This document shows, piece by piece, positions 44,018-48,574 of a stretch of 64,000 nucleotides of DNA (its first letter is position 1; the number at the start of each line of letters is the position of its first letter). The notes below the pieces were generated by a model. The model saw only the letters and a program-made list of their open reading frames with translations, had not been told where the DNA came from and did not search any database. The position numbers and the translations under genes were made by a program. The DNA is from Escherichia coli (GTDB lineage Bacteria > Pseudomonadota > Gammaproteobacteria > Enterobacterales > Enterobacteriaceae): assembly GCF_024298765.1 (NCBI RefSeq), contig NZ_CP101210.1; one strand, given 5' to 3'.

Positions 44018-47000
44018 ATGAATAAGAAATTTAAATATAAGAAATCGCTTTTAGCGGCTATTTTGAGCGCAACCCTGTTAGCCGGTTGTGATGGCGGTGG
44101 CTCCGGATCTTCCTCCGATACGCCGCCTGTAGATTCTGGAACAGGGTCTTTGCCGGAAGTGAAACCTGATCCAACACCAAACCCGGAGCCGACGCCTGAG
44201 CCAACGCCGGACCCAGAACCAACGCCGGAACCGACACCTGATCCAGAGCCAGAACCGGAGCCAGAACCTGTTCCTACGAAAACGGGTTATCTGACCCTGG
44301 GCGGAAGCCAGCGGGTAACTGGTGCTACCTGTAATGGTGAATCCAGCGATGGCTTTACATTTACACCTGGTGAGGACGTTACTTGCGTGGCGGGTAACAC
44401 GACAATTGCCACCTTCAACACTCAGTCAGAAGCTGCGCGTAGCCTGCGTGCGGTTGAAAAAGTGTCGTTTAGTCTTGAGGACGCGCAAGAACTGGCGGCT
44501 TCCGATGACAAGAAAAGCAATGCGCTCTCGCTAGTCACCTCCATGAACAGTTGCCCGGCGGATACAGAACAGGTGTGCCTGGAGTTCTCCTCAGTGATCG
44601 AGAGTAAACGCTTCGACTCGCTGTATAAGCAAATCGATCTGGCACCGGAAGAGTTCAAAAAGCTGGTCAATGAAGAGGTGGAAAACAATGCCGCGACCGA
44701 TAAAGCGCCATCCACTCATACTTCACCGGTCGTGCCCGTCACCACTCCGGGAACAAAACCGGATCTGAACGCTTCCTTCGTGTCGGCTAACGCGGAACAG
44801 TTTTATCAGTATCAACCTACGGAAATCATTCTCTCTGAAGGCCGACTGGTAGATAGCATGGGCAATGGTGTGGTTGGCGTAAATTACTACACCAGCTCAG
44901 GCCGTGGCGTAACTGGCGAAAACGGCAAATTCAACTTCAGCTGGGGCGAAACCATCTCCTTTGGTATCGACACCTTTGAACTGGGCTCAGTACGCGGCAA
45001 TAAGTCGACCATTGCGTTGACTGAGCTGGGCGACGAAGTTCGCGGCGCGAATATTGATCAGCTTATTCATCGCTATTCGACGACCGGGCAAAATAATACC
45101 CGTGTTGTGCCGGACGATGTACGCAAGGTCTTTGCCGAATATCCCAACGTGATCAACGAGATTATCAATCTCTCGTTATCCAACGGTGCGACGCTGGATG
45201 AAGGTGAGCAAGTTGTTAATCTGCCAAACGAATTTATTGAGCAGTTTAAGACGGGTCAAGCCAAAGAGATCGATACCGCGATTTGTGCGAAAACCGACGG
45301 TTGTAACGAGGCTCGCTGGTTCTCGCTGACGACGCGCAATGTTAATGACGGCCAGATTCAGGGCGTTATCAACAAGCTGTGGGGTGTGGATACAAGTTAC
45401 AAATCTGTCAGCAAGTTCCACGTCTTCCATGACTCTACCAACTTCTATGGCAGCACCGGTAACGCGCGCGGTCAGGCGGTGGTAAATATCTCCAACTCGG
45501 CATTACCGATTCTGATGGCGCGTAATGATAAAAACTACTGGCTGGCGTTTGGCGAAAAACGCGCCTGGGATAAAAATGAGCTGGCGTACATTACGGAAGC
45601 GCCTTCCATTGTGCAGCCAGAGAACGTTACGCGCGATACTGCGACTTTCAACCTGCCGTTTATTTCGCTGGGGCAAGTCGGTGAAGGCAAACTGATGGTT
45701 ATCGGTAACCCGCACTACAACAGCATCCTGCGTTGCCCGAACGGTTACAGTTGGGGCGGTGGTGTTAATAGTAAAGGTGAGTGTACGCTCAGCGGTGATT
45801 CTGATGACATGAAGCACTTTATGCAGAACGTCCTGCGCTACTTGTCAAATGACATCTGGCAGCCAAATACCAAGAGCATCATGACTGTCGGCACCAACCT
45901 GGAGAACGTTTATTTCAAAAAAGCGGGCCAGGTATTGGGAAATAGTGCACCATTTGCTTTCCATGAGGATTTCACTGGTATCACGGTTAAACAGTTGACC
46001 AGCTATGGCGATCTGAATCCGGAAGAGATTCCGTTGCTGATCCTCAACGGCTTTGAATATGTGACTCAGTGGTCTGGCGATCCCTATGCTGTGCCTCTGC
46101 GTGCAGATACCAGCAAACCGAAGCTGACTCAGCAGGATGTGACCGATCTGATCGCTTATCTGAACAAAGGTGGCTCGGTGCTGATCATGGAAAACGTGAT
46201 GAGCAATCTTAAGGAAGAGAGCGCGTCCAGTTTTGTGCGTCTGCTGGATGCCGCGGGTCTGTCAATGGCTCTGAACAAATCGGTGGTGAACAACGATCCG
46301 CAAGGGTATCCGGATCGCGTTCGTCAGCGTCGCGCGACTGGCATTTGGGTTTATGAACGTTATCCTGCTGCAGACGGCGCGCAACCGCCGTACACCATCG
46401 ACCCAAATACAGGGGAAGTGACCTGGAAATACCAGCAAGACAACAAGCCTGATGACAAGCCGAAACTGGAAGTTGCGAGCTGGCAGGAGGAAGTTGAGGG
46501 CAAACAGGTAACGCGTTATGCCTTTATTGATGAAGCGGAATACACAACAGAAGAATCTCTGGAAGCGGCAAAGGCAAAAATCTTTGAGAAGTTTCCTGGG
46601 TTACAGGAGTGTAAGGACTCGACTTACCATTACGAGATTAACTGTTTGGAGCGCCGCCCAGGCACGGATGTTCCGGTAACAGGTGGCATGTATGTTCCGC
46701 GCTATACGCAACTGAATCTTGACGCCGACACCGCGAAAGCGATGGTGCAGGCGGCGGATTTAGGCACCAACATTCAGCGCCTGTATCAGCATGAGCTTTA
46801 TTTCCGTACCAAAGGCAGTAAAGGTGAGCGTCTGAACAGTGTTGATCTGGAACGTCTGTACCAGAACATGTCGGTCTGGCTGTGGAACGATACGAAATAT
46901 CGTTACGAAGAGGGCAAGGAAGATGAGCTGGGCTTTAAAACGTTCACCGAGTTCCTGAACTGCTACGCCAATGATGCCTATGCAGGCGGCACCAAGTGCT

Positions 47001-48574
47001 CTGCAGATCTGAAAAAATCGCTGGTCGATAACAACATGATCTACGGTGACGGTAGCAGCAAAGCGGGCATGATGAACCCAAGCTATCCGCTCAACTATAT
47101 GGAAAAACCGCTGACGCGTCTGATGCTGGGCCGTTCCTGGTGGGATCTGAACATTAAGGTTGATGTGGAGAAGTACCCAGGATCCGTATCGGCAAAGGGT
47201 GAGAGCGTTACGGAAAACATCAGCCTGTACTCGAATCCGACCAAATGGTTTGCGGGTAACATGCAGTCAACCGGCCTGTGGGCACCGGCCCAGCAGGACG
47301 TCACCATTAAGTCTTCGGCGTCAGTCCCAGTGACTGTTACCGTGGCGCTGGCTGACGACCTGACTGGACGTGAGAAGCATGAAGTTGCGCTGAACCGTCC
47401 GCCAAGAGTGACTAAAACGTATACTCTGGAGGCTAACGGTGAAGTGACCTTCAAGGTGCCTTATGGTGGTCTGATTTATATCAAGGGCGACAGTAAGGAT
47501 GATGTTTCTGCTAACTTCACCTTTACCGGTGTAGTAAAAGCGCCGTTCTATAAAGACGGCGAATGGAAAAACGATCTGGACTCACCGGCGCCGCTGGGCG
47601 AGCTGGAGTCTGCGTCGTTCGTCTATACCACGCCGAAGAAGAACCTTGAGGCCAGCAATTTCACTGGTGGTGTAGCAGAATTCGCTAAAGATCTGGATAC
47701 CTTTGCCAGCTCGATGAATGATTTCTACGGTCGTAATGATGAAGACGGTAAGCACCGGATGTTTACCTATAAAAACTTGACGGGCCACAAGCATCGTTTC
47801 ACCAACGATGTGCAGATCTCCATCGGTGATGCGCATTCGGGTTATCCGGTAATGAACAGCAGCTTCTCGACGAACAGCACCACGCTGCCGACGACGCCGC
47901 TGAACGACTGGCTGATCTGGCACGAAGTTGGTCACAACGCCGCCGAAACGCCGCTGACTGTTCCTGGCGCAACTGAAGTAGCGAACAACGTGCTGGCGCT
48001 GTACATGCAGGATCGCTATCTCGGCAAGATGAACCGTGTCGCTGACGATATTACTGTCGCGCCGGAATATCTGGAGGAGAGCAACGGTCAGGCATGGGCG
48101 CGCGGCGGTGCGGGTGACCGTCTGCTGATGTACGCACAGTTGAAGGAGTGGGCAGAGGAAAACTTTGATATCACGAAGTGGTATCCAGATGGCAAGCTGC
48201 CAGCGTTCTACAGCGAGCGTGAAGGGATGAAAGGCTGGAACCTGTTCCAGTTGATGCATCGTAAAGCACGCGGCGATGATGTTGGTAACAGCACCTTTGG
48301 TGGCAAGAATTACTGTGCTGAATCCAATGGTAACGCTGCCGACACGCTGATGCTGTGTGCCTCCTGGGTCGCCCAGACGGATCTTTCGGAGTTCTTTAAG
48401 AAATGGAATCCGGGTGCAAGTGCTTACCAGTTGCCGGGAGCAACGGAGATGAGTTTCCAGGGCGGTGTGAGCTCTTCGGCTTACAGCACGCTGGCGTCAC
48501 TCAAGCTGCCGAAACCGGAAAAAGGGCCGGAAACCATTAACAAGGTTACCGAGCATAAGATGTCTGCCGAGTAA
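44018..48574 (+). CDS. sslE: secreted lipoprotein mucinase SslE (M60-like metalloprotease), T2SS-beta substrate
   Basis: 1518 aa from ATG 44018; lipobox LLAGC; Pro/Glu-rich linker; HEVGH zinc motif encoded at 47921-47935. Confidence 0.88.

Follow-up and report, generated by a model that had tools for sequence, protein, structure and literature searches.

An intact sslE gene with a length-polymorphic proline-rich tract and a mosaic allele in Escherichia coli

Introduction

SslE (YghJ) is an Escherichia coli lipoprotein that serves as a colonisation and biofilm factor. It is among the candidate antigens for vaccines meant to protect broadly against E. coli, and the structure of its alleles has some practical relevance. 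Here we analysed the sslE gene contained in a stretch of 64,000 nucleotides from E. coli (contig NZ_CP101210.1 of RefSeq assembly GCF_024298765.1), which we refer to as the window and whose coordinates are used throughout unless gene positions are named. We are nearly certain that the gene encodes an intact SslE, that is, a lipidated M60 mucinase exported by the beta-type type II secretion system (T2SS-beta) and carrying a disordered tether, and that its allele is recombinant.

Most of what defines this system has already been described: the linker, the HEVGH motif, the mucinase activity, the dependence on the T2SS and the variants I and II are published, and a full-length structure is available in the PDB. 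A sequence for localisation to the periplasm and a lipobox have been described in SslE, and the region after the lipobox is an unstructured, flexible linker of ~5 kDa that is followed by NT1, the first folded domain; the linker (mature residues up to 66) was removed to obtain folded recombinant SslE (PMC8881592). The structure of the T2SS-beta operon and the T2SS-dependent secretion and surface display of SslE have been documented (PMC5012682; bioRxiv 10.64898/2026.05.07.723501), and Gly/Asp-rich P2'-P8' motifs have been reported for T2SS-dependent lipoproteins (PMC12802150). M60-like peptidases act on mucin-type glycoproteins (PMC8881592, PMC4014459). The M60 domain of SslE degrades mucins, and a mutant in which HEVGH was changed to YVVGY lost mucinase activity and behaved as a knockout (PMC4014459); SslE also helps biofilm maturation. 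Variant I is represented by UTI89 and IHE3034 and variant II by MG1655 and H10407 (Table S1, PMC4014459).

Results

The window carries an intact sslE gene

The sslE coding sequence encodes 1518 residues followed by a single terminal stop, and its open reading frame (ORF) is intact. The longest ORF spanning the gene begins at a TTG (44000..48574, +); the ATG at 44018 was taken as the start, following the start and end that RefSeq gives for the gene in strain 104, and the alignment to the NCBIfam model NF037973 agrees with this choice. That model (metallo_SslE) was matched with 3474.6 bits (cut-off 3000), with residues 1-1518 aligned to positions 1-1519 of its 1519, and the SslE/AcfD subfamily model NF037974 was matched with 1962.8 bits (cut-off 800) over residues 104-1509. 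Chain A of PDB entry 23px, a protein of 1520 residues named 'Putative lipoprotein AcfD homolog', aligned to the window SslE with 3188 bits, and entries 23py and 23pz were matched as well. The gene is widespread, with matches to sslE in 4098 of 5426 complete E. coli genomes (4102 records), nearly all of them labelled sslE.

An initial annotation, made from the letters alone, had called the gene a full-length SslE and had proposed a Pfam search for the M60-like and N-terminal domains of the family. The end-to-end match to NF037973 above its cut-off supports that call, and the Pfam search, which we ran, returned all of DUF4092, M60-like_N and Peptidase_M60 (Table 1). Furthermore, the SslE-specific N-terminal region (NT1-NT3, including DUF4092) is present, and the alignment is collinear with the SslE proteins of K-12 and UTI89. 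An additional Pfam match, to Trypan_PARP (E = 7e-7), is to an unrelated family with the same Glu-Pro composition. Every defining feature of SslE that a sequence can test is present in the window, and, judged on its sequence, the gene is an intact SslE, the E. coli lipoprotein that is secreted and associated with the surface.

We also considered whether the gene might be a pseudogene or a truncated copy, as occurs elsewhere through insertion sequence (IS) elements or deletions from sslE to gspJ, and rejected this, the ORF and the operon of the window both being intact. Antisense ORFs of up to 225 residues occur within sslE (for example at 47582-48259 on the - strand); lying inside a strongly supported gene, they were treated as spurious and are probably artefacts of composition.

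The zinc motif is intact and lies within the M60 domain

HEVGH comprises residues 1302-1306 and falls within the Peptidase_M60 match (E = 2.1e-37), so that a chance occurrence of HExxH can be discounted. The motif had been predicted at 47921-47935, with its loss on careful translation named as the outcome that would speak against the prediction; translation places it, intact, at exactly those positions. The downstream glutamate of the HEXXHX(8,24)E pattern is E1320, at a spacing of X13, and both the motif and E1320 are invariant in all of the 10 alleles aligned. By analogy with the other alleles on which enzymatic work has been done, the window SslE would be expected to act as a zinc-dependent mucinase.

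The N-terminus resembles that of a lipoprotein secreted by a T2SS

The N-terminus has the pattern of a Sec/signal peptidase II type signal peptide, predicted to end in the lipobox LLAG-C24, and the segment that follows the cysteine begins with Asp at +2 and is rich in Asp, Gly and Ser. An aspartate in the +2 position is the classical E. coli signal for Lol-pathway avoidance, PulA being an example. In a PulA-like manner, Asp+2 and the Gly-rich stretch could steer SslE away from the Lol pathway and thereby make it available to the T2SS.

A Pro/Glu/Thr-rich tract with degenerate periodicity follows the lipidated segment

Residues 46-88 (PEVKP...VPTK) form a tract of 43 residues, of which 20 are Pro, 9 Glu, 6 Thr and 3 Asp. 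Since the NF037974 match starts only at residue 104, beyond the linker, the tract lies outside the core of the family. A run of 29 residues reported in the initial annotation is present exactly, at residues 56-84 (44183-44269). The same annotation had described short near-tandem DNA repeats at about 44164-44271; their position proved right to within a few bases, and the repeats themselves are imperfect. Tandem Repeats Finder (TRF) detected a period of 30 nucleotides with 2.5 copies and 75% matches at 44165-44238 (score 78), and a period of 12 nucleotides with 5.2 copies and 68% matches at 44207-44268. The periodicity of 6, 12 and 30 nucleotides is thus degenerate, the longest exact direct repeat being 11 nucleotides, and synonymous codons are mixed along the tract (CCG/CCA/CCT, GAG/GAA and ACG/ACA). 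A protein search with the N-terminal 215 residues returned mostly truncated or fragmentary ORFs; it provided additional tract sequences and no full-length relatives from other genera.

Tract length varies modestly and in frame among E. coli strains

The tract had been proposed as a likely site of length variation, with invariance among strains as the refuting case. We compared its length in two megablast searches of the complete E. coli genomes, in each of which 60 of ~4090 records were listed at even ranking steps. The first query was 583 nucleotides long (59 usable rows), and its length classes were corrected for two separate indels of one codon each (residues 102 and 126), both confirmed by sequence; the second, of 231 nucleotides, was limited to the tract and its immediate flanks. 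Representatives of the classes were translated. Relative to the window, the tract was of equal length in 8 rows, 6 nucleotides longer in 49, 6 nucleotides shorter in 1 and 12 nucleotides longer in 1 with the first query; with the second query the corresponding counts were 9, 48, 1 and 1, and 1 row matched downstream only. A tract of 45 residues was therefore present in ~81-83% of the sampled genomes and the 43-residue tract of the window in ~14-15%, while each other length accounted for ~2% or less. Length does differ among strains, as had been anticipated, and the variation is modest and skewed to 45 residues.

Sequence-verified lengths in E. coli were 25, 41 (two kinds), 43, 45 and 47 (two kinds) residues. 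The 45-residue form is that of K-12, UTI89 and most strains, and the 43-residue form is shared by the window, strain 1442 and Z142-4. Compared to the 45-residue form, the window tract is without ACA CCA, which encodes one Pro-Thr pair, and has CCA on each side of this point. One of the 41-residue forms (OkiPb01709) has lost a further pair from the (PE)n end, and the other (AST20, also P0018) has lost one PEPT from the first half. The 47-residue forms have gained EP (Z1323HEC0067) or DP (VG38-53E1). The 25-residue form, at codons 46-70, was found in the avian-pathogenic E. coli (APEC) strain BEN2908 (NZ_LR740776.1), where, compared to 45 residues, an in-frame deletion of 60 nucleotides falls exactly between two 11-nucleotide copies of GAGCCGACACC; outside this deletion the BEN2908 sslE is annotated as intact.

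All indels seen in the tract were of 6, 12 or 60 nucleotides, all were multiples of 3, and all lay at repeat boundaries. At least 5 independent events occurred within its 43-47 residues, compared to two sites of single-codon indels in the neighbouring ~150 residues, indicating that the tract is enriched for indels. The 43-residue tract was always accompanied by a window-type N-terminus (L001, Z142-4, P0001/2/13/14/25). Thus, length classes follow the N-terminal haplotype, which points to inheritance and recombination and not to frequent de novo change, and variation that is modest, skewed and in multiples of 3 argues that the locus is neither hypervariable nor phase-variable.

The window allele is a mosaic of variant I and variant II sequence

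Along the whole gene, the window sslE is 95.5% identical in nucleotides and 96.4% in amino acids to that of UTI89 (variant I), and 89.4% and 90.4%, respectively, to that of K-12 (variant II). This identity is not evenly distributed. In 300-nucleotide steps, identity to UTI89 rises from 80.6% at gene nucleotides 301-600 to 100% at 1501-1800, and over gene nucleotides 301-900 it is 80-85% to UTI89 compared to 94-98% to the variant-II-type allele Z142-4. We next followed the informative sites, defined as positions at which UTI89 differs from Z142-4. From gene nucleotide 78 to 1386 (44095-45403) the window mostly follows Z142-4; from 1404 to 3759 it equals UTI89 at 343 consecutive informative sites; and from 3900 to 4077 (47917-48094), around HEVGH, it is again mostly Z142-4-like, with a mixed 3' end. 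The outer stretches thus agree with variant-II-type alleles, K-12 as well as Z142-4, and variant I sequence is hence confined to gene nucleotides 1404-3759 and parts of the 3' end. On these comparisons, sslE genes of variants I and II appear to have undergone homologous recombination to give the allele. Such an intragenic mosaic implies that the published variants I and II are not clean clades, and since the two recombine within the gene, typing of the variant from one segment can mislead. Our literature searches found no explicit account of an intragenic mosaic or of linker length alleles, these searches being unspecific, so that absence is not implied.

The complete window allele (at least 99% identity) was present in 64 of the 4102 matching records (~1.6%), including the chicken isolates 104 and G12. 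Strain 104 is collinear with the window over 26018-62600 and differs there at 5 of 36,583 bases (99.986% identity), whereas window 1-26351 is only 98.7% identical to it (335 mismatches); this jump in identity suggests a recombination boundary near 26 kb. Some further observations concern the state of sslE in other strains. G12 has the window allele with an IS4-like ISVsa5 element interrupting it, and in several human isolates sslE is cut at about gene nucleotide 540 and abuts gspJ, which implies that sequence from sslE into the T2SS operon has been deleted. Five of the sslE matches were on plasmids.

A complete T2SS-beta operon lies directly downstream of sslE

The T2SS-beta operon is complete and uninterrupted 3' of sslE (48738-60502), in the same gene order as in UTI89. 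That sslE is accompanied by its cognate secretion system, as the initial annotation stated, is borne out by pppA, gspS-beta and gspC-M, which follow it directly. NCBIfam gave no match for pppA or gspS-beta, and both were assigned by Pfam and RefSeq. Unlike the complete system of the window, the K-12 version is truncated.

Upstream of sslE lie glcDEFGBA and then an intergenic region of 484 nucleotides. GC content is 29% at 43700-43999 compared to ~52% in the sslE gene, in agreement with the published AT-rich promoter of sslE and T2SS-beta, on which H-NS/StpA act as repressors and Fis as an activator (PMC5012682).

Collinearity with UTI89 stops just after gspM (60501), where UTI89 has its K1 kps capsule genes. 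Past gspM the window, like strain 104, carries a ParDE toxin-antitoxin pair and DUF4942/DUF957 genes, a content typical of the remnant of a prophage-like island. At 26305-32573, upstream of yghO, the window contains a cluster that is annotated in both strain 104 and UTI89 and comprises a second lptF/lptG-like pair, spt (serine palmitoyltransferase) and genes for an acyl carrier protein, an NAD-dependent epimerase and a fatty acyl-AMP ligase; this is possibly a cassette for the synthesis of sphingolipid-type lipids.

Table 1. Position of sslE, its parts and neighbouring features in the window
Feature	Position	Strand	Evidence
glcA-sslE intergenic region, AT-rich, published promoter site	43534..44017	+	GC content and literature
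sslE (yghJ) coding sequence, 1518 aa + stop	44018..48574	+	ORF, NF037973, RefSeq of strain 104, PDB 23px
Predicted lipoprotein signal peptide, lipobox L-L-A-G-C; Cys24 codon 44087-44089	44018..44089	+	By pattern only
Asp/Gly/Ser-rich segment after Cys24, Asp at +2	44090..44152	+	Read from sequence
Pro/Glu/Thr-rich tether PEVKP...VPTK, residues 46-88, 43 aa	44153..44281	+	Composition, TRF, strain comparison
DUF4092, residues 415-583, within the SslE-specific NT region	45260..45766	+	Pfam PF13322, E = 2.4e-91
Putative recombinant block identical to UTI89 (variant I), 2.36 kb	45421..47776	+	343 informative sites
M60-like_N accessory domain, residues 1079-1161	47252..47500	+	Pfam PF17291, E = 3e-11 to 6e-11
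Peptidase_M60 catalytic domain, residues 1171-1463	47528..48406	+	Pfam PF13402, E = 2.1e-37, model 1-274 of 275
Zinc-binding/catalytic motif HEVGH to Glu1320, HEXXHX(13)E	47921..47977 (HEVGH 47921-47935, Glu1320 47975-47977)	+	Translation, Peptidase_M60
pppA (gspO-beta) prepilin peptidase	48738..49547	+	Pfam A24_N_bact 4.3e-34, Peptidase_A24 8.7e-24; RefSeq of strain 104
gspS-beta (yghG) pilotin lipoprotein	49613..50023	+	Pfam T2SSS_2 1.3e-16; RefSeq of strain 104
gspC, D, E, F, G, H, I, J, K, L, M (yghD)	50041..60502	+	Each above NCBIfam equivalog cut-off; RefSeq of strain 104
ParE-like	60916-61242	-	
ParD-like	61239-61502	-	
DUF4942	61574-62440	-	

Discussion

The sslE-T2SS-beta locus of the window is intact and typical, and it offers no new biology. 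In keeping with the literature, its SslE would be lipidated and exported by the adjacent T2SS-beta, both to the surface of the cell and into the medium, and the Pro-rich tract would be the disordered tether that joins the lipid anchor to NT1. The alternation of X and Pro along the tract is consistent with an extended, polyproline-II-like spacer of up to ~13 nm at full extension, and such a spacer would keep the 160-kDa enzyme clear of the membrane surface. With the degenerate periodicity of the tract DNA, replication may occasionally slip or short repeats may recombine with one another, and this could produce rare in-frame indels, such as that of 6 nucleotides between CCA repeats in the lineage of the window or that of 60 nucleotides between the GAGCCGACACC copies in BEN2908. 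These indels would be tolerated because the tract has no fold.

Several points limit this account. The lipidation, secretion and mucinase evidence comes from other alleles (IHE3034, H10407, W and UTI89), and both the extended geometry of the spacer and the role of Asp+2 in Lol avoidance are inferred. The strain frequencies derive from samples of 59 rows, drawn from a complete-genome collection that is biased to clinical and laboratory strains. A glycoproteomic map of H10407 YghJ contains no modified peptide from the tract, which is neutral on the role of the spacer. Nothing that we found contradicts the identification of the gene as sslE, and the weak points are all functional.

Other roles for the tract have been weighed. 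Its alternating X-Pro sequence with 6 Thr resembles that of Pro-rich stalks, and it could be a module for binding or modification, either a stalk O-glycosylated in the manner of mucins or, as the Pro-rich rod of TonB would suggest, a rigid rod that interacts with a partner in the T2SS or the outer membrane. YghJ is indeed heavily O-glycosylated elsewhere, with 54 sites mapped in the H10407 protein, yet none of these precedes residue 99 and no glycopeptide was reported from the tract (PMC8417355), although its long tryptic peptide may have escaped detection. Recombinant SslE without the tract was folded and active in aggregation assays (PMC8881592), and BEN2908 carries a natural deletion of 20 residues in an ORF that is still intact; we hold such a module to be unlikely. 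A contingency locus, that is, a variable-number tandem repeat whose high-frequency mutation would switch the expression or antigenicity of SslE, is suggested by the tandem periodicity that TRF detects and by the differences in length among strains. However, the units are not near-perfect head-to-tail copies, indels of 6, 12 or 60 nucleotides do not switch the frame, the scrambled synonymous codons are the opposite of a slippage-prone tract, and lengths were constant within the lineages read, for example in two K-12-type sequences (L004 and L015). With repeats this imperfect and every indel in frame, we rejected phase variation, and we regard a contingency locus as scarcely credible.

A further possibility is that the tract is a tuned, adaptive ruler, its lengths selected to the thickness of capsule or O-antigen such that the enzyme is exposed or hidden from antibody. 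The existence of length alleles, the excess of indels over the neighbouring residues and the masking of SslE by the K1 capsule on IHE3034 (PMC4014459) would all fit, as would the occurrence of the shortest tract in an APEC strain. On the other hand, the dominant 45-residue length is shared by very different serotypes, including K-12, UTI89 and E2348/69, most other lengths differ by only 2-4 residues (less than ~1.3 nm), and lengths that track the N-terminal haplotype are what descent and recombination would give, rather than repeated selection. This makes a ruler very unlikely in our judgement. That host antibody or capsule has shaped both tether length (25-47 residues) and the mosaic of variants I and II, or that repeat indels slowly tune surface exposure, we consider decidedly unlikely. 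Were adaptation of this kind real, recombinant alleles would alter the combination of epitopes or the surface reach of a leading vaccine antigen, which would matter mainly for vaccine design. The reading we prefer remains an intact, T2SS-beta-exported SslE with a disordered tether and a recombinant allele. As a by-product, the analysis reveals a modest in-frame length polymorphism of the lipid-anchor tether, with one length dominant; neither this polymorphism nor intragenic recombination in a surface antigen will surprise specialists.

The locus was also compared with described systems. The window SslE has the catalytic domain, M60-like_N and the HEXXH...E motif in common with the M60-like/enhancin peptidases (PF13402), such as Pseudomonas IMPa and Bacteroides BT4244. 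In addition, SslE possesses a lipid anchor and N-terminal domains specific to its family that span ~1000 residues, and its score with the ImpA-family NCBIfam model is only 64 bits (cut-off 250). The likeness to Klebsiella PulA is mechanistic: like SslE, PulA is a T2SS-secreted surface lipoprotein with Asp at +2 and a dedicated T2SS encoded alongside (PMC12802150); in the window the sequence from the cysteine on reads CDGGG. However, the two share no sequence homology, PulA being a glycoside hydrolase and SslE an M60 protease, and the T2SS-beta operon of the window differs from the system of PulA in being without gspN. The match to NF037974 places the window protein in the SslE/AcfD family of lipoprotein zinc metalloproteases, which includes Vibrio cholerae AcfD. 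Of the published SslE variants I and II (Moriel 2010, Nesta 2014; PMC4014459), the window allele fits neither clade along its full length. To E. coli SslE/YghJ itself (NF037973) the correspondence is complete in organisation: the order of lipobox, linker, N-terminal region with DUF4092, M60-like_N and Peptidase_M60 is the same, HEVGH...E is present, and the gene lies at the same place in the chromosome, flanked by glcA and pppA, with the same T2SS-beta operon. The differences from it are allelic only, with 1518 residues compared to 1520 in K-12 and UTI89 and a linker that is one Pro-Thr pair shorter.

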